Shown: one piece after another, positions 42,706 through 64,000 of the stretch
Numbering within the stretch: position 1 is the stretch's first letter
How the letters are laid out: each line of letters begins with the position of its first letter
Source: Escherichia phage fEgEco12
Length of the DNA: 64,000 nucleotides
Sequence record: PP777464.1
Strand: one strand, 5' to 3'
The notes under the pieces: generated by a model
Told to the model about the DNA's origin: nothing
What the model saw: the letters and a program-made list of their open reading frames with translations, nothing else
The model's database searches: none
Translations under genes and position numbers: made by a program

Positions 42706-43372
42706 TTCAACATATAGACAGGGGAAGCTCCGCAGGGAAAGCATTGGACAGGCTTTAACAATTAGAAGAATTGTTAAAATTCAGCCTGGACAAATGCGAT
42801 CACTAGGATTCTCCCCAGGCTAAACCCCGTAATCATATGTAGTCATAAGTAATCATATATAAACATTTATATGAGCACCGTAGAATCACAGAATGATTAT
42901 ATATGATTCAGTACTGATTATTATAGACAAGATTACTCAAGAATGCTAGGGAAGGATTCAGTACTGCCCTAAAAGTATTCAGTACTGAAGGTGGCGATAT
43001 CCCACTAAGTAGGCAGAGGAAGTCTGCCGTACTTTGTAGTTTCCAAGCTCCTTTTCCATTTTGCAAATTACATCAAATGTAATCAAAAGTAATCACGCAA
43101 TGATTAGTACTGAATTATTACTTTCACCTTAATTACAATTACCCTTTTACCCTTCGGGGTAAAATTCCATTACCCCTTGAGGCTCCAGCAAAAAGTTGGT
43201 TAGTACTCCATCCTAAATCTCGATCCTAAAAATTTTGGAGTACCTATGAAATAAAAGTTGGATCTTCGAAAGTTGAAATTTACGTTGGGACGTTTATGAT
43301 TTGTGGGATATAATGATGTTTGTAATCGGGTAGTTCTCAAGAATATCAGTACTGAAAGATGAAAGAAAGTTA

Positions 43373-43400
43373 TTGACTTTATGATTCAGTACTGTATAAT
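43373..43400 (+). promoter_or_regulatory. orphan sigma70-like promoter (TTGACT-16-TATAAT) with no ORF downstream
   Basis: TTGACT 43373-43378, TATAAT 43395-43400. Confidence 0.45.
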
Positions 43401-43584
43401 GTTCTACATAGGGTGATGAGTTGCTGCGAACAATTCATTTACTCTACCTCCTGTCGTGAGACAGTACAGAAAAGATAGTTCCTCCTGTGGTGGTACATCT
43501 TTTTGAACCTCATATGAAAATCGTAATAACAGTACTGATATTAACAGAATGGTGTCAGTACTGATTTTAATCTAAAGCATTATG

Positions 43585-43604
43585 CCACCAGCTTGTGCTG
43601 GTGG
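43585..43604 (+). other. hairpin CCACCAGC(TTGT)GCTGGTGG containing a Chi octamer
   Basis: perfect 8-bp inverted repeat; GCTGGTGG at 43597-43604. Confidence 0.5.
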
Positions 43605-43740
43605 ATTCCCTCTAACAGTATTCAGTACTACATGATGGTCTTCATCCTCCTAGGGTAACATAGTGAGGGCTATGATGGCAGTACTGAATACTCCCTTTCA
43701 AAAGATAGATCTATGGTATAGTACTGACGGATTTTGGGTG

Positions 43741-43920
43741 TAGTTACCCTGGATGGATTTTGGGCGTAGATATGTCTAGCCCTCCAGAAGTCTGGAAGTA
43801 AAGATGGCTATCCATCTAGACGGCTAAACGGCTAGATTTCTGGATGGCTGGATGGCTGGATGGCTAGACGTTTGGACGGCTAAACGGCTAGATGGTTACA
43901 CGTCTGGAAGTATAGACGGC
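43741..43920. repeat. iteron-like repeat cluster (3x tandem TGGATGGC; 2x 19-bp GACGGCTAAACGGCTAGAT; 2x GTCTGGAAGTA) followed by AT-rich stretch
   Basis: direct repeats read from sequence; no ORF. Confidence 0.6.
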
Positions 43921-44551
43921 TAAATCAAAATTTTATTTTGTTTTTTCCAATAGTTCCCCTACCGCGTGGGGATAGTTTCCCCGCAGTATCTGGTGTTAGA
44001 TTTTTCTGAATCTGGAATCATTATCTTATAAACTGGGGGCAATGTCAACGGCCTGGACGGATATTTTTAAAAATTTTTTCAGTACTGAATTTTGGGCGTA
44101 ACTATGCACCCGGTGGGCTTGAGTCTTTCTCGACTTGATGGAACTATTATACAGTACTGAAAAAATAAAGCAATACCCTGGAAGCAAAAAAGTTTTAATT
44201 AATTTGCTTGCTATCCTGGGCCGGACTATGGTACTATATTTCAGTACTGAGAAAGTGCGTTTACCTGCTAGGGTGCGGGAGTGTATCCTTTTTTTATATC
44301 TTGAATTTTGGACGGATCTTCCCACCCCCTGGGGTATCCGCTTTCTCGCGTCTATGTAGTAATTATACGCTTTTTCAGGATCAAGTCAATACCTAAAAAC
44401 AAAATAATTGAAAATAATTTAACGCGTTTAAACGGCCTGTAAAGCCCTGGAATGATTGGAATGGTGCAAATGTATAGCTTATGTGTATTAATGCGTTAGA
44501 ATGCGTCTGAGGACGTTTTACGGGGTATAGGGATGATTTAGTGGATTGATT

Positions 44552-44638
44552 CAGTACTGAATAATAGTACTCCTATATAGAAAGATAGTTCCCCTGGATG
44601 ATTGCAGTACTGAATAATAGTACTCCTATATAGAAAGA
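44552..44638. repeat. 34-bp direct repeat CAGTACTGAATAATAGTACTCCTATATAGAAAGA x2 (period 53)
   Basis: copies at 44552-44585 and 44605-44638. Confidence 0.65.
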
Positions 44639-44666
44639 AAACTATTTTAAAAGTATTTGTAGAAAG

Positions 44667-44729
44667 TACTTGCACCGTACTGATAAAAGCGTATAATGTT
44701 TTACATCGAGAGCGGGAACACTTCCCGCT
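44667..44729 (+). promoter_or_regulatory. promoter + leader stem-loop module
   Basis: TTGCAC 44670-44675, TATAAT 44692-44697, hairpin AGCGGGAACACTTCCCGCT. Confidence 0.65.
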
Positions 44730-44752
44730 ACACATTAAGAGAGATTAAAACG

Positions 44753-45115
44753 ATGGCGACTCAAATCAATAAAATCATGCTTAACCTGGTAAACTTCCGC
44801 GATGAGATGAAAGGTCTTCCGGCTGAAACTGTAAAAATTCACATTGCAGCTTATCGGGAACTTATTGCAATGTTGCCGCTTAAGCGTGAACAATACGCCG
44901 CTACTTTGATGCTGGATTCAATGATCCATATAATGATCTCAAATGATTTGACGATGGTTTATCAGTATATGGGCGAAAATTTCGCGGTGTGTAGTAAGCC
45001 AGTACCAGGGATGGCAACAACTGAGGAATTGCACGGCTTAAACTTAAAACAAGATGCATGGGATAATATGCCTCGTTTCCTGGTATGGGCTGACAGTGGC
45101 AAAATTTACAAATAA
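44753..45115 (+). CDS. hypothetical protein (120 aa)
   Basis: ATG downstream of the module; track ORF N-terminus is promoter read-through. Confidence 0.55.
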   Translation: MATQINKIMLNLVNFRDEMKGLPAETVKIHIAAYRELIAMLPLKREQYAATLMLDSMIHIMISNDLTMVYQYMGENFAVCSKPVPGMATTEELHGLNLKQDAWDNMPRFLVWADSGKIYK

Positions 45116-45125
45116 GTTTAATAAA

Positions 45126-45188
45126 GTACTTGCAAACTATGTTTAATGGCGTATAATGTTTTACATCAGGTGGGGAATAGTTCCCCCC
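45126..45188 (+). promoter_or_regulatory. promoter + leader stem-loop module
   Basis: TTGCAA 45130-45135, TATAAT 45152-45157, hairpin GGGGAATAGTTCCCC. Confidence 0.65.
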
Positions 45189-45208
45189 TATATAAGAGGA
45201 TTAAAAAA

Positions 45209-45448
45209 ATGGCTAAATCAAAAATGTTCTTAGGTCACAAAAACAAAACTCATTGGAATGTAAGCCTGTGGATTAATAACGATGAGGGATTGTATCGGTT
45301 GGCCCTGGACTTTATTGCCGCCAATACTAATCGCAATGATGCGGCCCGTCATATGATGTTATTTTTAGAACAGACTGGACAAGATAAAACACCGGACGGA
45401 TTCAAATATAGCACTACTGCGATCCGTGCGGCGATGGTTGGAATGTAA
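45209..45448 (+). CDS. hypothetical protein (79 aa)
   Basis: ATG after leader hairpin and AGAGGA RBS. Confidence 0.5.
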   Translation: MAKSKMFLGHKNKTHWNVSLWINNDEGLYRLALDFIAANTNRNDAARHMMLFLEQTGQDKTPDGFKYSTTAIRAAMVGM

Positions 45449-45534
45449 TAGAATTTATTTAAAGTACTATCATTTTTTTGCGATAGTACTTTATAATAGT
45501 GTTTTATTCATACACCAACGATAAGGGCAACAGC

Positions 45535-45801
45535 ATGAATATTAAGTATTTTGCGACGCGTGAACAAGCTCGGATCGCCGCACGCCAGGACGGGGCAACG
45601 TTTAAAGATATGGGCGTACAATCGGAACGTGGTAAACGTTGGGCCATTGTAAAGCGTAGTACCGCCAGATCATTACAGTACTGGTTAGCGGCCTTAAAAA
45701 GTCCCGATAGTGTATCGCGTCGAGTGGTAGAAATAAAGCTCGACCGAAAGGGCAACCGCGTGACCGTGTACCGTACTAAAAAGATTGCAGTACTTGAATA
45801 A
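45535..45801 (+). CDS. hypothetical protein (88 aa), KYFATREQARIAAR family
   Basis: paralog of 57853-58248. Confidence 0.5.
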   Translation: MNIKYFATREQARIAARQDGATFKDMGVQSERGKRWAIVKRSTARSLQYWLAALKSPDSVSRRVVEIKLDRKGNRVTVYRTKKIAVLE

Positions 45802-45804
45802 AAA

Positions 45805-45868
45805 GTACTTGCAAACTATGTTTAAAGGCGTATAATGTTTTACATCGAGAGCGGGAACTCTTCCCGCC
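45805..45868 (+). promoter_or_regulatory. promoter + leader stem-loop module
   Basis: TTGCAA 45809-45814, TATAAT 45831-45836, hairpin GCGGGAACTCTTCCCGC. Confidence 0.65.
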
Positions 45869-45882
45869 TATAACCTGGAGTA

Positions 45883-46119
45883 ATGAAAATGACTAATATG
45901 TATATGACTGAAGTTAAAACCGTAAAAGATACTACCACGAATAAAACTACTTACTTACAGCGGATCTGTGGTGTATGGCAACGTATCAGCAAATCAAAGT
46001 ACTTTAAATTAACATCATATGCAAACCGTTCGGATTCATTCAGTACTGAAATAAAAGGTAATAAAGTACACCAATACGGCACTTATTATTATTATAGCCT
46101 GGACGCGATTGCAGTATAA
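45883..46119 (+). CDS. hypothetical protein (78 aa)
   Basis: ATG after GGAG RBS. Confidence 0.5.
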   Translation: MKMTNMYMTEVKTVKDTTTNKTTYLQRICGVWQRISKSKYFKLTSYANRSDSFSTEIKGNKVHQYGTYYYYSLDAIAV

Positions 46120-46149
46120 GCAGTTTACAAATCTTTACAATTGCCGGTA

Positions 46150-46178
46150 TTGACTTATTTTGTCAGTACTGGCATAAT
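46150..46178 (+). promoter_or_regulatory. orphan promoter TTGACT-17-CATAAT (rightward)
   Basis: TTGACT 46150-46155, CATAAT 46173-46178; no ORF downstream. Confidence 0.5.
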
Positions 46179-46293
46179 GTATTCATTGGCAGATAAGCCG
46201 TAGCCCATAGGGTGCGGGAGTGTATCTATAGAAAAAGTAGTTTATTACAGTTACAATTGTGCACCCGGTGGGTTAGCTGTTGTCATGGGGTAT
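46179..46293. ncRNA. candidate small RNA locus between convergent promoters
   Basis: contains TAGCCCATAGGGTGC (46201-46215) and its near reverse complement (46260-46276); no ORF. Confidence 0.3.
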
Positions 46294-46322
46294 ATTATGC
46301 CAGTACTTGATAATGCTGTCAA
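46294..46322 (-). promoter_or_regulatory. orphan promoter on minus strand (TTGACA-17-CATAAT), convergent with 46150
   Basis: reverse complement of 46294-46322 gives TTGACA and CATAAT boxes. Confidence 0.5.
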
Positions 46323-46364
46323 TACTTTTTTTTACTATTCAGTACTGAAAACTATTTTTAAAAA

Positions 46365-46396
46365 GTACTTGCAAACTATGTTTAAAGGCGTATAAT
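46365..46396 (+). promoter_or_regulatory. promoter (TTGCAA-16-TATAAT) upstream of a structured non-coding element
   Basis: TTGCAA 46369-46374, TATAAT 46391-46396. Confidence 0.6.
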
Positions 46397-46397
46397 G

Positions 46398-46486
46398 TTT
46401 TACATCAGGACGGGGAACGAAATAAGTAACTTCCCGTTAAGTAGCCCAGGAGTAAGGCACACGAAAAACTCCCCTGATAAAATAGT
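46398..46486 (+). ncRNA. candidate small RNA / structured leader (copy 1 of duplicated element)
   Basis: about 85 nt between two promoters, no ORF; near-identical copy at 56652-56738. Confidence 0.35.
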
Positions 46487-46514
46487 TTGACAAATGTTTT
46501 TAAAAGCGTATAAT
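46487..46514 (+). promoter_or_regulatory. promoter TTGACA-16-TATAAT for gene 46547
   Basis: TTGACA 46487-46492, TATAAT 46509-46514. Confidence 0.6.
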
Positions 46515-46546
46515 ACTTACATCAACTACTGAATGAGGGTTACAAA

Positions 46547-47158
46547 ATGAAAACTATCACTACTACTACTTTCGTTATGGATTTTTCTGAATTGAACGCA
46601 GAACAAAAAACGTCAGCTATCGAACTGGTTCGGGAACGTGAAAAAAACTCAAACGACAATTATTTTTCTGAAAGTGAAATTGAATACTATAAAGAAACAG
46701 TACTACCGGAATATGGCATTAATGACGCTGAAATACAATTCAGTGGCTTTTGGTCCCAGGGTGACGGTGCATCAATCAGTACTGACCACGTTGACGCAGT
46801 GAAGTTTTTACGCAAGGTAAGAGCATTAACTAAGTATCGCTCAATCCGTCACTTGCTGAATGAAGATGATTTGGCGATGAGTGTAAAGCGTTCGCACTCC
46901 CACTACTCGCATGAGAATACTGTAAGCGGGTACATTGAATCGGCTTACACTGATTTAACCGCAAAACAAGAAACGTTAGTTAATGAGCTTGAGGAACTAC
47001 TCACTGAAACTATTCGTGAATTATCCCGCAAGTTGTACCGTGATTTAGAGAATGCATATGAGGATCAATTCACTACTGAAAACATTACGGCACTGATTGA
47101 GGGTAACGAGTATCAATTCAATGTTATTGATGGCGTAGTGGAATCAATCGAATATTAA
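46547..47158 (+). CDS. hypothetical acidic protein (203 aa)
   Basis: ATG with GAGGG RBS. Confidence 0.6.
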   Translation: MKTITTTTFVMDFSELNAEQKTSAIELVREREKNSNDNYFSESEIEYYKETVLPEYGINDAEIQFSGFWSQGDGASISTDHVDAVKFLRKVRALTKYRSIRHLLNEDDLAMSVKRSHSHYSHENTVSGYIESAYTDLTAKQETLVNELEELLTETIRELSRKLYRDLENAYEDQFTTENITALIEGNEYQFNVIDGVVESIEY

Positions 47159-47166
47159 TTTAAAAA

Positions 47167-47230
47167 GTACTTGCAAACTAAGTTTAAAAGCGTATAATAC
47201 TTTATATCGAGAGCGGGAATAGTTCCCGCT
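47167..47230 (+). promoter_or_regulatory. promoter + leader stem-loop module
   Basis: TTGCAA 47171-47176, TATAAT 47193-47198, hairpin AGCGGGAATAGTTCCCGCT. Confidence 0.65.
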
Positions 47231-47250
47231 ACTAATGAGGAATACTACAA

Positions 47251-47415
47251 ATGAATACTTTTACCTTCGCTCAATTGAACGCCCTGGATGTATTGTCTGA
47301 TGCTTTGCGGGATGCAACTGAAAGCGGTTTATTTGACAATGTTGACATTCACCCTGATGTAATTAATAATTTTTGTGATGCTATCGCAGAAGTACTGGAA
47401 GATCTAAAAAAATAA
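47251..47415 (+). CDS. hypothetical small acidic protein (54 aa)
   Basis: ATG after module with GAGGAA RBS; below track cutoff. Confidence 0.45.
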   Translation: MNTFTFAQLNALDVLSDALRDATESGLFDNVDIHPDVINNFCDAIAEVLEDLKK

Positions 47416-47421
47416 TAGAAA

Positions 47422-47485
47422 GTACTTGCAATTAGTTTTCAGTACTGTATAATGGTTTACATCAAAGGGAGAAATGGTTCTCCCT
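47422..47485 (+). promoter_or_regulatory. promoter + leader stem-loop module
   Basis: TTGCAA 47426-47431, TATAAT 47448-47453, hairpin GGGAGAAATGGTTCTCCC. Confidence 0.65.
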
Positions 47486-47503
47486 GGTAATGAGGAAAAT
47501 ACA

Positions 47504-47725
47504 ATGGCTAATATCACTACTCTTTCCCAACTGGAAGCACTGGTTAAATCTATGCGGGAACATGCTGACAAAATCGGCGTACAAGATCCAGCCGTTTGCT
47601 TCTGCGACGAATTGAATGATGATACCCTGGTAATAGCAGAAGTCCAGGACGTTTCTAACTATTCCTCGCGTTACACTGGCGGCGTAGCAAATAAAGGTGA
47701 CTTCTGTTTATACCTTACAAAATAA
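47504..47725 (+). CDS. hypothetical protein (73 aa)
   Basis: ATG after GAGGAAA RBS. Confidence 0.5.
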   Translation: MANITTLSQLEALVKSMREHADKIGVQDPAVCFCDELNDDTLVIAEVQDVSNYSSRYTGGVANKGDFCLYLTK

Positions 47726-47728
47726 CAA

Positions 47729-47760
47729 CGCGGGGAGATAATAACTCCCCGTTACTTTTT
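47729..47760 (+). terminator. intrinsic terminator hairpin CGGGGAG..CTCCCCG + T-run
   Basis: 7-bp stem then TTACTTTTT. Confidence 0.6.
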
Positions 47761-47839
47761 CAGTACTGAATCATTTAATAGACGGATCTCGGCACCCGGT
47801 GGGTTAGTGACAGTTTCGTCTTGATGTAATAATTATGCC

Positions 47840-47876
47840 AGTACTGGATGCACTTGTCAACAACTATTTTTTCAAA
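47840..47876 (-). promoter_or_regulatory. orphan minus-strand promoter (TTGACA-17-CATAAT) reading into the 3' end of gene 47504
   Basis: reverse complement gives TTGACAAGTGCATCCAGTACTGGCATAAT; leader carries the TAACCCACCGGGTGC motif. Confidence 0.45.
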
Positions 47877-47890
47877 TACTTTTTATTAAA

Positions 47891-47950
47891 ATACTTGCAA
47901 TTAGTTTTTAAACGCGTATAATGTTTTGCATAGGGGGAGCGGTTCCCCTG
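47891..47950 (+). promoter_or_regulatory. promoter + leader stem-loop module
   Basis: TTGCAA 47895-47900, TATAAT 47917-47922, hairpin GGGGAGCGGTTCCCC. Confidence 0.65.
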
Positions 47951-47969
47951 GTAACTAAGGAATAAGAAA

Positions 47970-48206
47970 ATGCTTGAACAAATCAAATCAACGTCTGCGA
48001 ATGTAACGGGAACGGTAGTACACTTTACTAGTGATGAATCGCGGGGTGTACCCTATTGTGCTGTACATGTAAACACTGAGGGTAACTACTGGTTTACGGT
48101 TTACGGATCATATTCATTTGGACGGCCTGGGCATCAAAAAATTCTGGATAAAGTACAACCAACGGGTAAAAATATCACGGCTGAAATGTTTTATAAAAAA
48201 TCATAA
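47970..48206 (+). CDS. hypothetical protein (78 aa)
   Basis: ATG after AAGGAA RBS. Confidence 0.55.
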   Translation: MLEQIKSTSANVTGTVVHFTSDESRGVPYCAVHVNTEGNYWFTVYGSYSFGRPGHQKILDKVQPTGKNITAEMFYKKS

Positions 48207-48271: not shown

Positions 48272-48290
48272 GGTAACTAAGGATAATCAA

Positions 48291-48842: not shown

Positions 48843-48847
48843 GTACA

Positions 48848-58295: not shown

Positions 58296-58309
58296 ATAGG
58301 ACAAACAAA

Positions 58310-58564: not shown

Positions 58565-58589
58565 CAGTACTCAATTGTTTTAGTACTAT
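58561..58589 (+). promoter_or_regulatory. promoter TTGACA-17-TACTAT
   Basis: TTGACA 58561-58566; duplicated at 58837. Confidence 0.55.
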
Positions 58590-58617
58590 GTACACATACC
58601 AACACGGGAGAAACAAA

Positions 58618-58836
58618 ATGAAATTATCTAAAATCGAAAAGAAAACTATTGATGAAGCAGTTAAGCACGGTTATACCTTTCGTAATGATTCACATTTTAC
58701 CAATTTTCAACAAGGGTATCGTACTATTAAAAAACTAATTGACAAAGGTTTATTAGTTGAAGTCAATAACGGTAACGGTATCGAGTATCAACCAACACAG
58801 GACGCATTTTATTTTAAGAAATATAATATTATCTAA
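58618..58836 (+). CDS. hypothetical protein (72 aa)
   Basis: ATG after GGGAGAAA RBS; track ORF begins at TTG within the promoter. Confidence 0.5.
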   Translation: MKLSKIEKKTIDEAVKHGYTFRNDSHFTNFQQGYRTIKKLIDKGLLVEVNNGNGIEYQPTQDAFYFKKYNII

Positions 58837-58865
58837 TTGACAGTACTCAAATGTTTTAGTACTAT
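58837..58865 (+). promoter_or_regulatory. promoter TTGACA-17-TACTAT (duplicate of 58561)
   Basis: TTGACA 58837-58842. Confidence 0.55.
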
Positions 58866-58893
58866 ATGTACATACCAACACGGGGGAAACAAA

Positions 58894-59136
58894 ATGATTA
58901 CTTTAGAAAAACGTATCAAAGAAACTACATCGCTGGTGGAACTGTTAACAGTACTCAAATGTAAAACAACACCATTCAGCACGCCGGACTTTATTAATAT
59001 GGTTGATGTTAATGGTCGCTATCGTATCACGGTCGAACAAGGAGCGGCGAAAGTATTCAGTACTAAAAACACGAAGGAAGTGATCCACGCCGTTAATGTT
59101 AAAAAAGTAGTTGCCATTGATAGTAAAGTACTGTAA
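58894..59136 (+). CDS. hypothetical protein (80 aa)
   Basis: ATG after GGGGGAAA RBS. Confidence 0.5.
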   Translation: MITLEKRIKETTSLVELLTVLKCKTTPFSTPDFINMVDVNGRYRITVEQGAAKVFSTKNTKEVIHAVNVKKVVAIDSKVL

Positions 59137-59167
59137 TATAGTTTCATTAACTCAAGGAGAACATGCA

Positions 59168-59752
59168 ATGCGTAATTATACTAAATTCATCCGTACACTG
59201 TCAGAAATGGAAACCAACAAAGAGATCCTTTCAGCTTGTCGGTTAGCTGGCCTGGAGATCATCGGTGCTGGTTCTTCCCGTATAGTTTTCGCTTTAAATG
59301 ATCGGTTAGTGATTAAGGTCGCGAATTGTGATGCGGGTGTAGAACAAAATGAAACTGAATGTAAGGTATGGAATTTTTTAGACTATGACCGCCCTCAATT
59401 GAAACAGTACTTTGCAAAGGTGCATATGCATTTATGCGATCCTGATAATATGTTTATCGTTATGGATCGGTTGAGTACTGCAAGCAAAGGCAGTGTGAAG
59501 CACGTAAACGCGTGCAATGAATTAAAGTACAATATTAAACGTAATGCAATCGAACGCCAGCACCGCTTTGCTGATGCACTACAACACGTTGATGATACAT
59601 TATCAACACTAACGATAAGAGATATCAGAAAACAGAATATCGGCCAGGATCGTAATGGACTTATTAAAGTACTTGATTACGGTTTAACCAGCAATATCTG
59701 GAATCAGTACTATAAAAAGCGTGATGTGGCAGCAAGTAAGGTAACACGATAA
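59168..59752 (+). CDS. protein-kinase-like protein (ePK-fold motifs)
   Basis: GAGSSRIV glycine loop, VIKV lysine, IRDIRKQN catalytic-loop-like, DYG (DFG-like). Confidence 0.55.
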   Translation: MRNYTKFIRTLSEMETNKEILSACRLAGLEIIGAGSSRIVFALNDRLVIKVANCDAGVEQNETECKVWNFLDYDRPQLKQYFAKVHMHLCDPDNMFIVMDRLSTASKGSVKHVNACNELKYNIKRNAIERQHRFADALQHVDDTLSTLTIRDIRKQNIGQDRNGLIKVLDYGLTSNIWNQYYKKRDVAASKVTR

Positions 59753-59767
59753 AAAAAGATTAAAAAA

Positions 59768-59800
59768 GGGATTGACTCCGGTCAGTCCCTTTGCTATTAT
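59768..59800 (+). terminator. composite terminator-promoter (GGGATTGACTCCGGTCAGTCCC; -10 TATTAT)
   Basis: same element as 56499 and 62520. Confidence 0.65.
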
Positions 59801-59893
59801 ATATCCATTGAGAGATAACTCACTGACCCATAGGGTGCGGAAGTGTATCTATTATATAAGTATTCAGTACTGAAAACTATTTTTAAAAAAGTA
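59801..59893 (+). ncRNA. candidate short transcript with ACCCATAGGGTGCGGAAGTGTATC motif
   Basis: no ORF before next promoter. Confidence 0.3.
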
Positions 59894-59954
59894 CTTGCAT
59901 TGTACTTAGAATCAAGTATAATGTTTTATATCGAGAGGGGGAATGGTTCTCCCT
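59894..59954 (+). promoter_or_regulatory. promoter + leader stem-loop module
   Basis: TTGCAT 59894-59899, TATAAT 59917-59922, hairpin GGGGGAATGGTTCTCCC. Confidence 0.65.
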
Positions 59955-59973
59955 GGCAATAAGGAATAAAATC

Positions 59974-60195
59974 ATGACTACAATGACTTGCATTTACGCT
60001 TCTAATCTTCTGAATGATGCGGCCTTTAATGTTGATTCAGAATATCAATGTTATCGGGATGAAAATAAAAAAGTTTTTGTAGTTGATAATAATGGTTTCC
60101 ATATTGAATTACAATCCGGCTTCACTGGTGTTGATGGTAAATCAGTATGGGGCGTACAGGATGATAAAGGCACATATCATTTTAAACGTAATTAA
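59974..60195 (+). CDS. hypothetical protein (73 aa)
   Basis: ATG after AAGGAATAAA RBS. Confidence 0.55.
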   Translation: MTTMTCIYASNLLNDAAFNVDSEYQCYRDENKKVFVVDNNGFHIELQSGFTGVDGKSVWGVQDDKGTYHFKRN

Positions 60196-60198
60196 GTA

Positions 60199-60257
60199 TT
60201 GACAAAGTATATCAGTACTGTATAATAGTTTACATCAAGGGGAGAATAGTTCTCCCC
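60199..60257 (+). promoter_or_regulatory. promoter + leader stem-loop module
   Basis: TTGACA 60199-60204, TATAAT 60221-60226, hairpin GGGGAGAATAGTTCTCCCC. Confidence 0.65.
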
Positions 60258-60278
60258 GATACTAAAAGGAATAAAATC

Positions 60279-60683
60279 ATGACTACTACTAATCAAGCTC
60301 GGTCCATCGCCAACGATAAAAATCATGCTGCAATGGTCGCTGGTTACATTGAAGCTATGCAATTCAGTACTGTACACAATGAGAACGGCGATTACCTGGA
60401 AGATTATGAGTTATCTGATGAAGCACGTCAAGCGGCGGTGATTGCATGTTCTCGCTTCATTGAGAAACACGGTAATGATCTGGAAGTAGTTCGCGGTATG
60501 TTTATTGATTACGGTTATGAGCAAGCTGGTCATGATCTGTTCCTTACCCGCGAAGGTCACGGAACTGGTTTTTGGGATCGTGGTTTAGGTCACTATGGCG
60601 ATGTATTCACGAAGTACTGCGAAGAAATCAACGTTTGCGATCCCTATGTAGGCGATGATAATCTAATCTATATGGGCGAATAA
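60279..60683 (+). CDS. hypothetical protein (134 aa)
   Basis: ATG after AAAGGAA RBS. Confidence 0.55.
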   Translation: MTTTNQARSIANDKNHAAMVAGYIEAMQFSTVHNENGDYLEDYELSDEARQAAVIACSRFIEKHGNDLEVVRGMFIDYGYEQAGHDLFLTREGHGTGFWDRGLGHYGDVFTKYCEEINVCDPYVGDDNLIYMGE

Positions 60684-60689
60684 AAGTAT

Positions 60690-60748
60690 TTGACAAAGTA
60701 TATCAGTACTGTATAATAGTTTACATCAAGGGGAGAACTATTCTCCCC
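60690..60748 (+). promoter_or_regulatory. promoter + leader stem-loop module
   Basis: TTGACA 60690-60695, TATAAT 60712-60717, hairpin GGGGAGAACTATTCTCCCC. Confidence 0.65.
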
Positions 60749-60772
60749 ACACCAATAAAAGGAAACAAAATT

Positions 60773-61045
60773 ATGTCCAGCTACTCCGCTACTATGATCA
60801 TTAAAGATATGAACGGTAATCCTACTTCTGCTGGTGGATCATTTGGAAATATTAACTTAGATGGGCGGTTATCCATGCAATCAGCCATCGATACAGCGAA
60901 AGAAGTTTTTAAGAATGAATGTACTGTTAGTAAGCTGGATTATATGGGATTCGCTATCGAGAAAACTACTCGTTTTGTGAACTACAAAAATCCACTGATG
61001 ATTGATACTAACCTGAAAGCTAACGAAGTGGGGTACTTATTATGA
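60773..61045 (+). CDS. hypothetical protein (90 aa)
   Basis: ATG after AAAGGAAA RBS. Confidence 0.55.
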   Translation: MSSYSATMIIKDMNGNPTSAGGSFGNINLDGRLSMQSAIDTAKEVFKNECTVSKLDYMGFAIEKTTRFVNYKNPLMIDTNLKANEVGYLL

Positions 61046-61233
61046 CAGTAGAAGAAGTTAAAAAAGTACTGGCAGTACTACGATATCATAATCATTGCAA
61101 GGTGAAGAATGATCCTGATTATCTTGATTCATCCCTGGAGGAAGACACCTTGAACGCTATAAGCCATATGCAGACATTAGCAAAGCGTATGACTGAAAAG
61201 AACATGCCGGACTATATCGGAAATAAAATTTAA
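61042..61233 (+). CDS. hypothetical protein (63 aa)
   Basis: ATGA overlap. Confidence 0.5.
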   Translation: MTVEEVKKVLAVLRYHNHCKVKNDPDYLDSSLEEDTLNAISHMQTLAKRMTEKNMPDYIGNKI

Positions 61234-61239
61234 AAAGTA

Positions 61240-61302
61240 CTTGCATTGTAGTTAGATTAACGTATAATGTTTTATATCGAGAGGGGGAAATGGTTTCCCC
61301 TC
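61240..61302 (+). promoter_or_regulatory. promoter + leader stem-loop module
   Basis: TTGCAT 61240-61245, TATAAT 61263-61268, hairpin GAGGGGGAAATGGTTTCCCCTC. Confidence 0.65.
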
Positions 61303-61320
61303 AAGTCCAGGAGATACACC

Positions 61321-61584
61321 ATGAACACTATCGAAATCACTATCAATGCACACGTATACGACAACGTAGTACTGCAAACTACTATGACCGCCAATGATAC
61401 CAGTACTTTGCGGAATACTGTTATTAGTGCCGTATGTGCCGCTATCGGTGATGTCGCCCTGGAAAATGCAAAACACGTAAACGATGGTTTCACTATGTGC
61501 AAACGTGATAACGCAAAACATATCATCGTGGAAGGTTACGGCGGTGTAGAATTTAATGTTTATATGAAAAAAGTACTTGCATAA
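61321..61584 (+). CDS. hypothetical protein (87 aa)
   Basis: ATG after CAGGAGA RBS. Confidence 0.55.
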   Translation: MNTIEITINAHVYDNVVLQTTMTANDTSTLRNTVISAVCAAIGDVALENAKHVNDGFTMCKRDNAKHIIVEGYGGVEFNVYMKKVLA

Positions 61585-61632
61585 TAACTAAAACAAAGTA
61601 TAATGTTTTGCATAGGGGGAGATATCCTCCCC
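61577..61632 (+). promoter_or_regulatory. promoter + leader stem-loop module
   Basis: TTGCAT 61577-61582, TATAAT 61599-61604, hairpin GGGGGAGATATCCTCCCCC. Confidence 0.65.
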
Positions 61633-61651
61633 CACTAAAAGGAGTAATAAA

Positions 61652-61876
61652 ATGGCTAACTTTGATGAACTGATGCGGGAAGTAGCTAACCTGGCAGAAG
61701 AGAAGAAATCATTCGATTCTATCTATAACACCGCTCACCGTGATTCAGTACTGGCATGTAACCAGGATCAAAAAGATGAACTAATCGCCACCTATCATGA
61801 AGCATGGAAGTACTACCGACAATGGGAGAAAGAAGAAAGTGAGTCTACCATTGACGGCCTCAATAATCTAATCTAA
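61652..61876 (+). CDS. hypothetical protein (74 aa)
   Basis: ATG after AAGGAG RBS. Confidence 0.55.
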   Translation: MANFDELMREVANLAEEKKSFDSIYNTAHRDSVLACNQDQKDELIATYHEAWKYYRQWEKEESESTIDGLNNLI

Positions 61877-61888
61877 AAGTTTTATTTC

Positions 61889-61924
61889 AGTACTATTGAC
61901 ATAGCTTGATAGTACTGATGTAAT
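61889..61924 (+). promoter_or_regulatory. palindrome-embedded promoter (AGTACTATTGACATAGCTTGATAGTACT)
   Basis: TTGACA 61896-61901; weak -10. Confidence 0.5.
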
Positions 61925-61952
61925 AACTTTACTAACTACAAGGGGAAACATA

Positions 61953-62210
61953 ATGGATCAGTTCACACAATATCGGGTAAATCCACAAGCTATGGCCTAC
62001 GTAGAAGACCATAAAACGTTACCAGTACTGCAACCAGTTAAAGGCCATATCTATCGTGCAATGTCGTGGTGTACGGCCCAGGATGGCTATAAAACCGTAG
62101 CCGTGGGTATGTATTGCGGTGATGGTGAATGGTTTGATCCAAATAATCCGGTAGCCATTGACAGTACTGAAAAAATGAAATGGGCCGACTACATCGAAGA
62201 TATTTCATAA
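61953..62210 (+). CDS. hypothetical protein (85 aa)
   Basis: ATG after AAGGGGAAA RBS. Confidence 0.55.
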   Translation: MDQFTQYRVNPQAMAYVEDHKTLPVLQPVKGHIYRAMSWCTAQDGYKTVAVGMYCGDGEWFDPNNPVAIDSTEKMKWADYIEDIS

Positions 62211-62217
62211 AAACTAT

Positions 62218-62279
62218 TTGACAGTACTAACCAATAATGTATAATGTTTTACATAGAGCGGGGGAATAGTTCTCCCGCC
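62218..62279 (+). promoter_or_regulatory. promoter + leader stem-loop module
   Basis: TTGACA 62218-62223, TATAAT 62240-62245, hairpin GCGGGGGAATAGTTCTCCCGC. Confidence 0.65.
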
Positions 62280-62300
62280 AATAGTTTGGAGTAAAACATT

Positions 62301-62501
62301 ATGTCTATCGCTATCGCCCTGGTTGAAGTACTGAAAGAAGCTAAAGCCAACCAGATCGACGTAAAGATCCAGGAACTACAAAACGGCTTAATCGGCTGTA
62401 CTTGTACCGCTGGTGGAGCGGCAGACTATCGAGAACACGAATCACTCGAATCACTGGTTCGGTATCTTACCATGATCGTTGATGATTGGAGAATCATCTA
62501 A
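62301..62501 (+). CDS. hypothetical protein (66 aa)
   Basis: ATG after TGGAG RBS. Confidence 0.55.
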   Translation: MSIAIALVEVLKEAKANQIDVKIQELQNGLIGCTCTAGGAADYREHESLESLVRYLTMIVDDWRII

Positions 62502-62519
62502 CAAAAAAGAATAAAAAAA

Positions 62520-62552
62520 GGGATTGACTCCGGTCAGTCCCTTTGCTATTAT
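62520..62552 (+). terminator. composite terminator-promoter (GGGATTGACTCCGGTCAGTCCC; -10 TATTAT)
   Basis: third identical right-arm copy. Confidence 0.65.
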
Positions 62553-62660
62553 ATACGCATAGACAAAAACTAGCCCACAGGGTGCATAGGTGTATCCAAA
62601 ATATATAGTTAATAACGGTGAGTAACTATCTGCTGGTGGAACTAAAACTATTAATAAAAA
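62553..62660 (+). ncRNA. candidate short transcript with CTAGCCCACAGGGTGCATAGGTGTATC motif and Chi octamer
   Basis: no ORF; GCTGGTGG 62632-62639. Confidence 0.3.
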
Positions 62661-62664
62661 AGTA

Positions 62665-62692
62665 TTGACAAAGTATATCAGTACTGCAATAA
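62665..62692 (+). promoter_or_regulatory. promoter TTGACA with weak -10 (CAATAAT)
   Basis: TTGACA 62665-62670. Confidence 0.45.
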
Positions 62693-62746
62693 TGTATCTC
62701 GTAGGGCGGCAATGGTGCGACGGCCCACAAAGTTAGGAGATTCACC

Positions 62747-63079
62747 ATGAGTACTTCAATCGCTATCGTTAAAGCTTTCATCCGTACTAATGTTTCCTCT
62801 GTATTCATCGACGGCCTCGACCGTAACGTAGAATACTCAATCATTATCGCACAAACGGCAAACGGTTCTCGGTACATCCTGAATGATAGTGAAGCAAATC
62901 ACTACTACTTCACTAAAGCCACTGGCTTTAAACGCATCGATGCTGATGTAGTATACGCTAAGATGAATAAGCTGGTAGATAAGATTAACGCTAAAGGTAC
63001 TATAGATTTACAGTACTGGACCGAAACCGATCCAGAGTATGGATCTCACCGCTACCTGAATCCAGGTATCAAAATGTAA
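62747..63079 (+). CDS. hypothetical protein (110 aa)
   Basis: ATG after TAGGAGA RBS. Confidence 0.55.
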   Translation: MSTSIAIVKAFIRTNVSSVFIDGLDRNVEYSIIIAQTANGSRYILNDSEANHYYFTKATGFKRIDADVVYAKMNKLVDKINAKGTIDLQYWTETDPEYGSHRYLNPGIKM

Positions 63080-63086
63080 AAAGTAC

Positions 63087-63148
63087 TTGCATAGTACTTA
63101 GATTCATGTATAATGTTTTACATAGAGAGGGGGAAATGGTTCTCCCTC
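63087..63148 (+). promoter_or_regulatory. promoter + leader stem-loop module
   Basis: TTGCAT 63087-63092, TATAAT 63109-63114, hairpin GAGGGGGAAATGGTTCTCCCTC. Confidence 0.65.
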
Positions 63149-63168
63149 CTAAATTAAGGAGTTTTATC

Positions 63169-63570
63169 ATGACCTTCTCAATCACTTCCTTCGCTGACGT
63201 TTTAGTACTGGCCCGGACTTTTGGTAAAGATGCACTGGAGTACGCTGTAAGTAATGGCACTATCCAACCGGAACAGTGCCGCATCATTGGAAACTGCAAA
63301 CGTTGGGCGGTTTCCAATACTATTGCACTGGAAAACTTCCACGATGGCAACAATGAATATTCTGTTGATGTAGTATTCGAAGCCGTTGATCTCGGCGGTA
63401 TCTATAATACTAACCTGAATGATGTGCGTATCGTTCGCACTGGGTTCGGTGCTTATGATGTATCTATTCGTGAAGCTATGAACACCGGATACATTAGCAA
63501 GGACTTACTTGCTCACATCATGCAGCTGTGTACGGAACGTAACGAAGCACGCACTATCTTAGGACTGTAA
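63169..63570 (+). CDS. hypothetical protein (133 aa)
   Basis: ATG after TAAGGAG RBS; track N-terminus is promoter read-through. Confidence 0.55.
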   Translation: MTFSITSFADVLVLARTFGKDALEYAVSNGTIQPEQCRIIGNCKRWAVSNTIALENFHDGNNEYSVDVVFEAVDLGGIYNTNLNDVRIVRTGFGAYDVSIREAMNTGYISKDLLAHIMQLCTERNEARTILGL

Positions 63571-63584
63571 GCGTTACACATCAC

Positions 63585-63604
63585 CAAACATCATAGGCCG
63601 CCTT
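63585..63604 (+). other. hairpin AGGCCGC(CTTGTA)GCGGCCT
   Basis: 7-bp inverted repeat; no T-run. Confidence 0.35.
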
Positions 63605-63638
63605 GTAGCGGCCTTAACTATATCAGGAGTACATACAC

Positions 63639-63848
63639 ATGATCTATACAGTATACAACGTTCTAGGCACTATTGCAGGCGTACATGATAACGTCGATGG
63701 TGCTATGCGTACAGTACTGCAACAGGTTCCACTAAAGCCTAAGACCATTAAGCAGATGACAGCACGACTAACCAGGGCGACGGCTGGCGTGGAAGTATGG
63801 CAGGACTATGGGGATACACAGATAATCGTAAGCGTAACGAAGGATTAA
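63639..63848 (+). CDS. hypothetical protein (69 aa)
   Basis: ATG after CAGGAG RBS. Confidence 0.55.
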   Translation: MIYTVYNVLGTIAGVHDNVDGAMRTVLQQVPLKPKTIKQMTARLTRATAGVEVWQDYGDTQIIVSVTKD

Positions 63849-64000
63849 TGCGTAAAAGGATTTAGTACTGAATCATAAAAAAGTCAAGGCATTTTTAAAC
63901 TTCAGCGTTAAAAAAATGCATAGGTAATCCCTTGACTTTTATGAATAAAAAGGGATTGGACTATGGCAAAATGCGTAGGGGGCTAAAGGGCGGGTAACCT

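Follow-up and report, generated by a model that had tools for sequence, protein, structure and literature searches.

AGTACT, best written as CAGTACTG, is a genomic word that is maintained by selection in enterobacterial RaK2-like jumbo phages. The analysed stretch of DNA (the window) comprises 64,000 nucleotides of Escherichia phage fEgEco12 (PP777464.1), an Asteriusvirus jumbo phage, in which an initial annotation had described the palindrome as recurring in intergenic DNA from 42.9 kb onward. That observation was confirmed as real but had been too narrowly described, and "intergenic promoter feature" is too narrow a label for the AGTACT excess.

Distribution of AGTACT in the window and in related phages

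The counts refer to the following features.

1..64000, no strand: AGTACT site population, 290 sites, 73 of them as CAGTACTG, counted against expectation
43008..64000, + strand: right direct terminal repeat, 20,993 bp, with immediate-early genes, located by alignment to the annotated repeat (1-21525) of vB_Ec-M-J
42909..44670, no strand: non-coding cluster at the repeat boundary, 20 AGTACT, 13 of them as CAGTACTG, in otherwise diverged sequence
38000..42700, + strand: small paralogous gene array in which 39 AGTACT sites were counted
26292..26311, - strand: example of an intrinsic terminator whose stem consists of two AGTACT copies, GCCAGTACTTGAGTACTGGC followed by a T-run

Over the whole window, 23.0 ± 4.3 AGTACT and 1.1 CAGTACTG were expected, the observed numbers were reached in none of 100 dinucleotide shuffles, and the AGTACT excess persisted under a maximal-order Markov model (z = 11). 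Comparison with Markov expectation, the check proposed in the initial annotation, thus placed AGTACT far above background. Within 42900-63880, AGTACT occurred 141 times (6.1 expected), CAGTACTG 43 times (0.24 expected), TCAGTACTGA 12 times (0.02 expected), and TTCAGTACTGAA 7 times (about 0 expected), and all 20 of the individual positions first listed lay no more than 11 nt from a true AGTACT, mostly within (T)TCAGTACTGA(A). The recurrence was not limited to this region, however, because positions 1-43007 held 152 AGTACT versus 17 expected (3.5/kb). Likewise, the intergenic excess held up (142 versus 7.6 expected in the non-coding DNA of the window) but was not exclusive, since coding DNA contained 146 AGTACT, in all three reading frames, versus 15 expected.

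The interval initially singled out is the right terminal repeat. The final base of the window is also the final base of the annotated vB_Ec-M-J repeat, and the length of the repeat is the same as that published for fEgEco12 (PMC13070987). AGTACT density peaked here (138 versus 6.0 expected; 6.6/kb; 23-fold). Outside the repeat, the density was equal in coding and non-coding DNA, with an even spread along genes, and the 12-mer TTCAGTACTGAA was characteristic of non-coding repeat DNA alone. The boundary cluster also holds GGATGGCT/GGACGGCT-type repeats. Counts in the array at 38000..42700 are inflated by paralogy, because conserved (E/Q)-Y-Y and V-L-K-L codon motifs supply part of them. The presence of AGTACT in terminator stems, as first proposed, was borne out by GCCAGTACT..AGTACTGGC hairpins 3' of RCC1-like paralogues; hairpins similar to the one listed above follow most of these paralogues between 21.5 and 38 kb (e.g., 30807-30826).

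The enrichment extends well beyond the window. In the 350-kb genome of the relative vB_Ec-M-J, AGTACT was found 939 times versus 107 expected and ranked first of 4,016 hexamers; all 10-kb bins were enriched (3.5- to 24-fold), and density was highest at the genome ends. It was also enriched in three further genera besides that of the window phage, including Klebsiella phage RaK2 (125 versus 11 expected) and Cronobacter phage GAP32 (105 versus 15 expected), and by at least 11-fold in about 20 IMG/VR loci on contigs of 345 to 378 kb. Late structural genes were enriched 6- to 8-fold, again with sites spread evenly along the genes. No excess was present in Escherichia coli (3 versus 4.8 expected), T4 (4 versus 5.8), or Pseudomonas phage PA5oct (1 versus 11.4). 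Genome-wide, AGTACT is approximately 9- to 10-fold over-represented, at about 1 per 370 bp or about 1,000 sites per phage genome, a density approximately 45-fold higher than in E. coli DNA (about 1 per 16 kb). We found no published description of this enrichment. Two local arrangements were also observed. One related contig carries AGTACT sites phased at 10 bp (AGTACTcttcAGTACTcttcAGTACT), and one 8.6-kb block of vB_Ec-M-J contains no AGTACT but has 49 sense-strand AGTACA in all three frames; the latter is unexplained by a symmetric duplex reader and hints at a strand-specific process.

Selection on the word and sharpness of its recognition

In coding DNA, AGTACT was far above the codon-plus-dipeptide expectation in each frame: 71 versus 23.5 expected as Ser-Thr (AGT-ACT), 46 versus 7.3 as nnA-GTA-CTn, and 28 versus 4.2 as nAG-TAC-Tnn. 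Since the excess is present in all three reading frames, selection acts at the DNA level. Divergence inside AGTACT sites (16/1374; 1.2%) was 3.4-fold lower than that of the flanks (167/4241; 3.9%; P = 4e-8), and 21 of 63 sites (33%) were positionally conserved in orthologues of GAP32, a relative at about 65% nucleotide identity, versus 14.2% for all hexamers (P = 1e-4). The sites were also more evenly spaced than chance, with a coefficient of variation of the gaps of 0.80 to 0.85 versus 0.99 ± 0.05-0.08 for random placement, and with a maximal gap of 1,965 bp versus 3,048 ± 578. Moreover, AGTACT was the only enriched six-base palindrome (12.7-fold); 26 of the 64 six-base palindromes were absent, and GCGC was wholly absent from the same genomes. 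The premise that phages usually avoid palindromes therefore applies to the rest of this genome to an extreme degree. Together, the reading frames, the slow evolution, the kept positions, the occurrence in three other genera, and the avoidance of other palindromes strongly support the initial suggestion that the enrichment reflects selection.

Information beyond the hexamer was limited genome-wide to the single base beside it (0.31 bit), with C at 46% and G at 8% at position -1 and the mirror image at +1. This preference was identical in coding and non-coding DNA, and left and right flanks varied independently. Among the nine distinct one-mismatch neighbours in the 350-kb relative, eight occurred at 1.1- to 2.4-fold of expectation and AGGACT at 0.5-fold; such slight enrichment of the neighbours indicates sharp recognition. 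With little flank information and a dominance of perfect sites, the pattern looks closer to recognition by a restriction/modification enzyme than to binding by a typical transcription factor. Because selection keeps the word and most early promoters contain it, some factor probably reads AGTACT.

AGTACT in the early promoters of the terminal repeat

Each early gene of the repeat is preceded by a repeated module that consists of a sigma70 promoter, a G+C-rich hairpin, and a ribosome-binding site. Among 46 predicted sigma70-type early promoters, 36 (approximately 78%) carried AGTACT at fixed offsets, abutting the -10 box and/or at the upstream edge of the -35 box. Examples are as follows.

60199..60226, + strand: class A promoter, TTGACA-N9-AGTACT-G-TATAAT, site abutting the -10 box
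45125..45157, + strand: class B promoter, AAAAGTACTTGCAA-N16-TATAAT, site overlapping the upstream edge of the -35 box
47421..47453, + strand: double-site promoter, sites 20 bp apart, AGTACTTGCAATTAGTTTTCAGTACTGTATAAT
53369..53404, + strand: double-site variant, sites 22 bp apart, AGTACT-A-TTGACA-N9-AGTACT-GA-CATAAT
58561..58589, + strand: promoter TTGACAGTACT-N10-AGTACTAT, two sites overlapping the -35 and -10 (TACTAT) boxes, upstream of a 72-aa winged-helix ORF, which it drives
58837-58865 and 17131-17159: further copies of the TTGACAGTACT-N10-AGTACTAT promoter

Class A promoters, with AGTACT 1 to 2 nt upstream of the -10 box, accounted for 19 of the 46, so the reported position in promoter spacers just upstream of the -10 box was correct for these. 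Class B comprised 22 promoters (AAAAGTACTTGC occurs 12 times in the window), and seven promoters had both sites, often 20 to 23 bp apart and on one helix face. Divergence within promoters was 1/244 for AGTACT, 2/258 for the -10 box, 6/252 for the -35 box, and 42/782 for other positions, which makes AGTACT as conserved as the -10 box. Because the promoters recur as cassettes, their sites are not fully independent. The same arrangement is seen in RaK2 promoters.

Candidate readers and alternative explanations

Our leading but tentative explanation, to which we give somewhat less than an even chance, is that a highly specific reader of two-fold symmetry, probably phage-encoded, serves to mark the phage DNA and also works at early promoters. 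Such a protein would read AGTACT on duplex DNA and would preferentially occupy phage DNA. The terminal repeat, with its immediate-early genes, is the first DNA into the cell, and AGTACT sits there at two fixed points where RNA polymerase has to touch the promoter, one directly beside the -10 box and the other on the upstream margin of the -35 box. Occupancy of these points would therefore modulate early transcription, with shut-off as the simplest outcome. The approximately 800 intragenic sites would have a distributed, number-dependent role, for instance in labelling, covering, or arranging phage DNA. These evenly spaced sites are more than a repressor needs and count against this reading; regulation at promoters alone leaves most of the approximately 1,000 sites per genome unaccounted for. 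The two-fold symmetry, the fixed offsets in promoters, and the 10-bp phasing of arrays agree with the dimeric phage regulator, nucleoid protein, or packaging protein proposed earlier, but no reader protein emerged from the analysis, and the one DNA-binding candidate in the window did not co-occur with the enrichment. No Pfam DNA-binding domain was detected among the 106 ORFs of the window. The local candidate was the following.

58618..58836, + strand: 72-aa early protein, predicted to fold as a DNA-binding winged helix (AlphaFold2 pLDDT 90)

Foldseek matched this protein to AspA, MarR, and MecI (TMq 0.72 to 0.84). It was rejected as the general reader because the occurrence of its homologues was not tied to the enrichment; a Mydovirus with a homologue had no AGTACT excess.

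Paralogous gene arrays and repeated cassettes do inflate local counts, and very-short-patch repair shifts oligonucleotide frequencies in E. coli. Nevertheless, a non-adaptive origin, through biased mutation, repair, or gene conversion, through codon or dipeptide usage, or through the spread of repeats and paralogues, is largely contradicted, and we consider it very unlikely: sites evolve 3.4-fold slower than flanks and keep their positions across genera, near-cognate hexamers are generally undepleted (eight of nine at 1.1- to 2.4-fold, AGGACT alone at 0.5-fold), each frame is far above codon and dipeptide expectation, and non-repetitive late genes are enriched too. It is comparably improbable that AGTACT is a promoter element only (extended -10 or -35-proximal), read by RNA polymerase or a phage sigma factor, with the excess arising from cassette copies. 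The fixed offsets in 36 of 46 promoters, the -10-like conservation, the clear repetition of the cassettes, and a sigma factor encoded by the relative that comprises regions 2 and 3 alone all agree with such an element; as a full explanation it is contradicted by the half of the sites that are coding, in every frame, and by the 6- to 8-fold enrichment of late structural genes with sites even along them. In addition, TG lies at -14/-13 rather than at the -15/-14 of an extended -10, a sigma factor would have no reason to read a palindrome, and AGTACT also builds terminator stems. An extremely unlikely reader is a host protein, chiefly the nucleoid occlusion factor SlmA (site GTGAGTACTCAC), which the phage genome would titrate or activate to block host division. 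Positions 4-9 of the SlmA binding site are the AGTACT core (PMC3020112), and the word is enriched in phages whose enterobacterial hosts possess SlmA but not in the Pseudomonas relative. However, G1, T2, and a purine in third place are essential for SlmA, whereas the phage has no G/T preference at the first two and has C at 46% and G at 8% at the third; in 350 kb, GTRAGYRCTYAC was absent, GTnAGTACTnAC was found twice, and GAGTACTC was found 5 times, with no copy of the last in the window. SlmA was therefore rejected.

Two further explanations are each rather unlikely. AGTACT may be the putative target of a phage orphan methyltransferase, its methylation state tuning those early promoters that have the site beside -10 or -35 and marking phage DNA genome-wide, with fully methylated virion DNA distinguished from newly replicated DNA, as for GATC with Dam, SeqA, and MutH in E. 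coli. GATC in E. coli has a density similar to the 1 per 370 bp of AGTACT, and recognition here is sharp (6 to 8 bp, little flank information) and type II enzyme-like. Two methyltransferases whose specificities are not readable from sequence are encoded by the relative, a 174-aa N6-adenine enzyme of the Dam family (PF05869) and a C5-cytosine enzyme, and RaK2 DNA is reported to be methylated (PMC3622015). On the other side, the RaK2 C5 enzyme reportedly targets a CpG site, which AGTACT does not contain, the family of the Dam-type enzyme occurs in more than 2,000 phage records with no tie to the enrichment, and no ScaI-type N4-cytosine methyltransferase appears in the annotation of the relative. 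We know of no methylation motif with a 9-fold genome-wide enrichment. It is also possible, although similarly doubtful, that AGTACT signals to a machine that tracks DNA or reads one strand, either as a Chi-like word at which a processive nuclease is turned off on phage DNA and not host DNA or as a preferred start site for the phage DnaG-type primase; being a palindrome, it would present the signal to both strands with the least constraint on coding. The density is uniform and independent of genes, with peaks at the genome ends, sites are spaced more evenly than a Poisson process would give, the largest gaps fall short of those in random placement, and left and right flanks vary independently; because the density is approximately 45-fold above that of host DNA, AGTACT can tell self from host. 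Furthermore, the AGTACA block shows the palindrome to be replaceable by a strand-specific half-word, the AGTACT flank yields CTG, the trinucleotide recognised by E. coli DnaG, on both strands, and true Chi is likewise concentrated in the terminal repeat. A tracking machine leaves the fixed early-promoter positions, their -10-level conservation, and the 10-bp phased arrays unexplained; known primases recognise trinucleotides, known Chi is asymmetric, and no candidate nuclease was identified.

Several known systems share part of this pattern. Chi (GCTGGTGG)/RecBCD, KOPS/FtsK, and DUS/USS are, like AGTACT, short exact words that are over-represented genome-wide in all coding frames, selected, and able to mark own versus foreign DNA, and DUS/USS also form inverted pairs in terminator stems; these words, however, are asymmetric and orientation sensitive and have known readers, whereas AGTACT is a viral palindrome approximately 10 times denser than Chi. 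GATC with Dam/SeqA/MutH resembles AGTACT as a short palindrome that occurs every few hundred bp, is concentrated in regulatory regions, and can make promoters there methylation sensitive, but GATC is not strongly over-represented genome-wide. ScaI and Eco255I recognise the identical hexamer with similarly sharp six-base specificity; restriction targets are normally avoided by phages, as 26 others are here, yet AGTACT is enriched 9- to 13-fold. SlmA sites share the palindrome and the identical core, and SlmA itself is a dimeric reader of many chromosomal sites, with location-dependent function; there are about 50 sites in E. coli versus about 1,000 AGTACT per phage genome, and the G1, T2, and purine-3 requirements are absent or counter-selected in the phage, with no full SlmA-type site in 350 kb. 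The PeSL cassettes of T4-type phages combine an early promoter and a stem-loop, like the module before the early genes here, but to our knowledge have never been described as carriers of a genome-wide palindromic word. Finally, phi29 p6 and SPO1 TF1 bind along the whole genome and turn down early promoters. The logic proposed for the phage-encoded reader, a phage protein on its own genome repressing early promoters from the -35 or -10 box, would be like that of p6, TF1, and Cro-type operators, although p6 and TF1 read DNA shape or modified bases rather than a strict hexamer, and Cro-type operators number a handful, with none inside genes, compared to about 1,000 sites here, many of them intragenic.

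Occurrence of AGTACT in the window and in related phages

The window was found to cover 64 kb at the right-hand end of the genome of an Asteriusvirus (121Q/PBECO4/phAPEC6-like) jumbo coliphage, with 92 to 99% identity to vB_Ec-M-J, EC.P1, Ecwhy_1, and others in most aligned blocks and 83% identity in one short block. In vB_Ec-M-J a direct terminal repeat is annotated, whose first position aligns with position 43008 and whose final base is the final base of the window; the window thus ends at the genome terminus (...GGGCGGGTAACCT). Because both ends of the repeat align to positions 43008 and 64000, the right direct terminal repeat (referred to here as the repeat) was placed at 43008-64000. Its length of 20,993 bp exactly matches the published experimental value for fEgEco12 (PMC13070987). 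The interval 42900-63880, in which the initial annotation had placed an over-represented palindrome, therefore approximates the repeat.

The hexamer AGTACT occurs 290 times in the window versus 23.0 +/- 4.3 times in dinucleotide-preserving shuffles, and the longer form CAGTACTG occurs 73 times versus 1.1 by the same standard. The excess claimed for 42900-63880 was borne out, with 141 copies of AGTACT versus 6.1 expected, 43 copies of CAGTACTG versus 0.24, and 7 copies of the 12-mer TTCAGTACTGAA, a feature of the noncoding DNA of the repeat, versus about 0. A true AGTACT was located within 11 nt of each of the 20 coordinates that had been listed, and the word also exceeded the k-mer background proposed as a check (z = 11 under a maximal-order Markov model). 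The excess had been described as intergenic, and noncoding DNA does carry one (142 versus 7.6), but it is not restricted to such DNA, as coding DNA holds 146 copies versus 15 expected when the two are divided according to our own gene calls. Nor does it set in at 42.9 kb, since 152 sites versus 17 expected were found upstream of the repeat.

Codon or dipeptide usage was rejected as the cause, because the excess in each reading frame is 3 to 7 times above codon expectation: AGT-ACT was observed 71 times versus 23.5 from codon and dipeptide usage, nnA-GTA-CTn 46 times versus 7.3, and nAG-TAC-Tnn 28 times versus 4.2. An excess in all three frames, beyond codon and dipeptide usage, indicates pressure on the DNA sequence and not on protein. 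In 350 kb of vB_Ec-M-J, AGTACT occurs 939 times versus 107 expected and ranks first among 4,016 hexamers; every 10-kb bin is enriched (3.5- to 24-fold), the structural-gene region included, and the maximum falls in the terminal repeat. Outside the repeat, the density of sites is the same in coding and noncoding DNA, and the sites lie evenly along genes. The sole informative flank genome-wide is the adjoining base (position -1: C, 46%; T, 22%; A, 24%; G, 8%), and the two flanks are independent.

Phage genomes are normally purged of short palindromes. Indeed, 26 of the 64 six-base palindromes, each with G+C in it, do not occur in the window, nor does GCGC, and the only enriched one is AGTACT (12.7-fold), the opposite of the depletion seen at an avoided restriction target. 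GCGC is also missing from vB_Ec-M-J (0 in 350 kb versus 212 expected), from the samples of RaK2 (a Klebsiella phage) and GAP32 (a Cronobacter phage), and from every AGTACT-rich locus in IMG/VR, and it is present at normal levels in phage T4, Escherichia coli, and the Pseudomonas relative PA5oct. The full loss of GCGC could be due to host restriction or to a phage-encoded GCGC-specific nuclease.

Enrichment of AGTACT with the same flank was found in RaK2 (125 versus 11 expected in 50 kb) and in GAP32 (105 versus 15 expected). When IMG/VR was scanned for CAGTACTGTATAAT, 120 loci were obtained. Some 20 of these were enriched 11-fold or more, all 20 without GCGC; the remainder were near 1- to 2-fold. 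Where full-length, the source contigs of the AGTACT-rich loci were 345 to 378 kb long. The genera with enrichment are Asteriusvirus, Alcyoneusvirus, Mimasvirus, and probably Eneladusvirus. No enrichment was found in E. coli K-12 (3 versus 4.8 in 50 kb) or T4 (4 versus 5.8 in 30 kb), and in the 100- to 140-kb region of PA5oct the word was depleted (1 versus 11.4 expected) and GCGC was normal. The density of AGTACT in the phage DNA is about 45-fold that of the host, which has one copy per ~16 kb. As a separate observation, the most enriched palindrome in the same PA5oct region is CTGCAG (15 versus 3.7), often as TCTGCAGA; the effect is modest and may represent an analogous word of different sequence. 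In addition, an unrelated-looking IMG/VR contig (24.7 kb, 45% G+C, normal GCGC) carries 10 copies of AGTACT in 7.5 kb versus 1.4 expected, all within the first 2.8 kb and seemingly coding, judged by their sequence contexts. These may reflect a preference for AGTACT in another phage group, or chance.

Selection on the sites and their spacing

Between the window and vB_Ec-M-J, divergence was 16/1374 positions (1.2%) inside AGTACT versus 167/4241 (3.9%) at positions 3 to 12 nt away (Fisher P = 4e-8), and 215 of 229 aligned copies were intact, versus 87.7% for all hexamers. In codon-aligned late-gene orthologues of vB_Ec-M-J and GAP32, for which nucleotide identity is about 65%, AGTACT was retained at the same position in 21 of 63 cases versus 14.2% for all hexamers (P = 1e-4). 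Since the totals in these two phages are nearly equal, density is maintained as individual sites turn over. The sites are also more even than a Poisson process in three of four genome sectors, with a coefficient of variation of the gaps of 0.80 to 0.85 versus 0.99 +/- 0.05-0.08 for random placement; the maximal gap in the 100- to 270-kb sector was 1,965 bp versus 3,048 +/- 578 bp at random. Biased conversion from near-cognate sequences was discounted as a source of the word because its one-mismatch neighbors are generally not depleted (1.1- to 2.4-fold; the exception is AGGACT, at 0.5-fold).

AGTACT in early promoters and terminators

The repeat is a block of small genes on the plus strand, and a separate sigma70-type promoter serves each of them. 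Recognizable early proteins of the window include the following.

54486-54743, early protein with a DksA/TraR zinc finger
54807-55163, early protein, GNAT acetyltransferase
58310-58564, early protein with a ParE-like toxin domain
58618-58836, early protein, 72-aa winged-helix protein (predicted)
8906-10393, 495-aa ORF with STAND/AAA NTPase matches, assigned via the annotation of a relative and our own gene calls; the annotation of its vB_Ec-M-J homologue reads virion structural protein

A scan of the repeat for TTGACA-like and TATAAT-like hexamers 16 to 18 bp apart yielded 46 promoters, of which 36 contain AGTACT. The initial annotation had placed the word in promoter spacers just upstream of the -10 box, and 19 of the 46 promoters do have it there, 1 to 2 nt away (TTGACA-N9-AGTACT-G-TATAAT). 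In 22 promoters, it lies at the upstream edge of the -35 hexamer, as AAAAGTACTTGCAA or AGTACT-A-TTGACA; 7 promoters have both sites, 20 to 22 bp apart, and 4 have the word elsewhere in the spacer, 2 of which also hold the -35-edge site. The offset between the first base of AGTACT and that of the -10 hexamer is 7 to 8 nt for the -10 site and 27 to 30 nt for the -35-edge site, and an additional TTCAGTACTGAA is often found about 23 bp upstream. Three promoters have two sites that overlap both the -35 and the -10 hexamers (TTGACAGTACT-N10-AGTACTAT), and in a related contig three sites are phased 10 bp apart. The same layout was seen in RaK2 promoters, for example, upstream of tRNA genes.

Within these promoters, divergence was 1/244 in AGTACT, 2/258 in the -10 hexamer, 6/252 in the -35 hexamer, and 42/782 at the remaining positions; between the -35 hexamer and the word the sequence varies freely, and the word is fixed. 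The sites thus share with the operator of a promoter-bound dimeric repressor a palindrome at a fixed position over the region contacted by RNA polymerase, conserved above its surroundings. The arrangement differs from an extended -10 element (TG at -15/-14, as in TGnTATAAT), because the TG of AGTACTG-TATAAT abuts the hexamer at -14/-13; the AGTACTGG-CATAAT form, with T at -15, was likewise judged not to be an extended -10 element.

AGTACT also forms the stems of terminators, as had been noted from the sequence, in GCCAGTACT..AGTACTGGC hairpins that follow RCC1-like paralogues, where the word is raw material. The paralogues, about 15 RCC1-repeat (beta-propeller) genes with products of about 375 aa, are arrayed on the minus strand at 21550-38000. 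Every one of them is equipped with a separate AGTACT-stem terminator and with a TATAGTATAAT-type promoter, behind which lies a strong ribosome-binding site.

Several other features of the repeat were recorded. All of its early promoters are directed inward from the left end, as would be expected if the genome is pulled into the cell partly by transcription. Upstream of the early genes at 44700-64000 lie repeated cassettes that combine a sigma70 promoter, a G+C-rich 5'-leader hairpin (e.g., GAGAGCGGGAACACTTCCCGCTAC), and a ribosome-binding site, a layout similar to that of the cassettes of T4-type phages, in which an early promoter is joined to a stem-loop. Noncoding DNA just inside the repeat boundary (43800-43920) contains short tandem-like repeats, GGATGGCT / GGACGGCTAAACGGCTAGA, that may have a role in end formation or packaging. 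A conserved ORF-less unit is present in four copies (about 52500-52600, 56500-56600, 59770-59870, and 62520-62620), in each of which a dedicated promoter (TTGACTCCGGTCAG..TATTAT) precedes TAGCCCACAGGGTGCATA..GTATC; the unit could represent a small RNA, and a search of Rfam returned no RNA family for it. True Chi (GCTGGTGG) is clustered in the repeat, with 10 top-strand and 2 bottom-strand copies in 21 kb, versus 14 and 9 copies in the remaining 328 kb of vB_Ec-M-J; the top-strand orientation is the one that would act against RecBCD entering at the right genome end.

Candidate readers and possible functions

The symmetry of the word, its sharp specificity, its fixed sites on promoter parts contacted by RNA polymerase, and the phasing of sites at one and two helical turns point to recognition by a two-fold symmetric protein on duplex DNA. 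Searches of the 106 ORFs of the window against Pfam and PHROGs found no DNA-binding family. The predicted winged-helix protein of 72 aa (58618-58836; pLDDT, 90; fold matches to AspA, MarR, and MecI) is encoded behind one of the promoters in which AGTACT overlaps both the -35 and the -10 hexamers. It was rejected as the general reader because no homologue was found in RaK2 or GAP32 at E <= 0.01 and because a Mydovirus of Klebsiella, whose homologue is 55% identical, shows no excess of AGTACT (1 versus 3.6 expected); it may still be a local regulator.

Known regulators were also compared. The LexA box (CTGT-N8-ACAG) does not fit, as CAGTACTG has the half-site pentamers swapped and overlapping and AGTACTGTATAATAGTTTAC lacks the distal ACAG; the half-site likenesses to LexA and TrpR motifs fail on spacing or orientation. 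The SlmA site has A-G-Y at positions 4 to 6 of each half-site, which corresponds to the central AGTACT; G at position 1 and T at position 2 are strongly required, and position 3 must be a purine (PMC3020112). The outer bases (GT....AC) are near background in the phage (-3 G, 17%; -2 T, 36%), with GTnAGTACTnAC found 2 times in 350 kb, and the adjoining base is most often C and least often G, with GTRAGYRCTYAC found 0 times in 350 kb. SlmA was therefore rejected as the reader: the core is shared, but the required flank bases are absent or counterselected, and full SlmA-type sites number 0 in 350 kb.

We tentatively favor, at less than even odds, an account in which a phage-encoded reader would preferentially occupy the DNA of the phage over that of the host. 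On early promoters in the repeat, it would either compete with RNA polymerase or modulate it, the simplest outcome being shutoff of the 36 word-bearing promoters, and the intragenic sites would serve a distributed, number-dependent function. Our confidence goes no higher because recognition of the word is enzyme-like, because its distribution is Chi-like, and because of a strand-specific block of AGTACA known from vB_Ec-M-J, outside the window. In that block (28765-37331; 8.6 kb, just inside the left repeat), AGTACT occurs 0 times, whereas AGTACA occurs 49 times on the sense strand (12-fold) and 0 times on the other, in all three frames, and T follows GTAC in 0 of 86 cases. A symmetric duplex reader does not explain this strand-specific half-word. 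A second AGTACT-free stretch just inside the left repeat lies at vB_Ec-M-J 21389-26696.

The enzyme-like aspect, in which all six bases are exact and a single flanking base adds weak information, as for a restriction/modification enzyme, would suit a methylation mark at AGTACT, an explanation that we consider improbable. The methyltransferases of vB_Ec-M-J belong to the Dam family (PF05869, E = 1e-32) and the C5-cytosine family (PF00145, E = 9e-35). The latter was set aside as the modifier because RaK2 methylation is reported at a CpG site (PMC3622015), and the former is uninformative as a clade marker because its family is spread over 2,196 phage records. It is similarly unlikely that AGTACT is a signal for tracking or priming, although its even, gene-independent distribution resembles that of the words of DNA-tracking machines such as Chi. 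As with words of the Chi, KOPS, and DUS type, there is a coding excess irrespective of frame and purifying selection on the copies; the asymmetry and orientation of such words are lacking, since AGTACT is palindromic and most bins show no imbalance between its nonpalindromic variants, AGTACV and BGTACT. Imbalance is limited to the 20- to 60-kb stretch holding the AGTACA block and to one tail-fiber bin, where it is attributed to protein repeats. A related reading, which we hold to be doubtful, is that AGTACT is a self word of a phage with unmodified DNA, read from either direction by a phage-encoded scanning machine. The machine would handle phage DNA, with a copy every few hundred bp, differently from host DNA, with a copy every ~16 kb. 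Candidates for the machine are a nuclease switched off by the word, on the model of Chi and RecBCD, or a loader that serves replication, recombination, or late transcription. If true, the self-word reading would explain how host DNA is handled without a modified base, why density peaks at the DNA ends, within the terminal repeats, and spacing is more even than chance, and why AGTACT is tolerated in a genome purged of almost every other palindrome.

No published description of AGTACT enrichment was found, including in the literature on this phage group: matches to CAGTACTG were primer sequences only, the CBB paper predicts RpoD-like promoters with AGTACT unmentioned, and the consulted parts of the RaK2 and fEgEco12 papers contain no mention of the word. 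There is a real chance that the reader and function are new. About 1,000 copies per genome are kept across at least three genera with different enterobacterial hosts, and one palindrome conserved at such numbers across genera points to a strong, unrecognized DNA-level function. For a group of 350-kb phages in which, by one published count for phAPEC6, 83% of gene products lack a known function, AGTACT offers a concrete handle and can be used as bait for its reader. Since the word is present in 36 early promoters and missing from 10, two classes of early promoter regulation are predicted, and the ~45-fold density gap provides a testable answer to how a phage with unmodified DNA discriminates self from host. 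Unless it is modified, the DNA of these phages, which are therapeutic candidates, would be reduced to very small fragments by ScaI-type enzymes. The nearest known phenomena are Chi, KOPS, DUS/USS, and GATC, as over-represented genomic words with dedicated readers, and the nearest multisite palindromes are the SlmA and Noc sites; unlike all of these, AGTACT is at once a palindrome, viral, and very dense, amid near-total avoidance of other palindromes.
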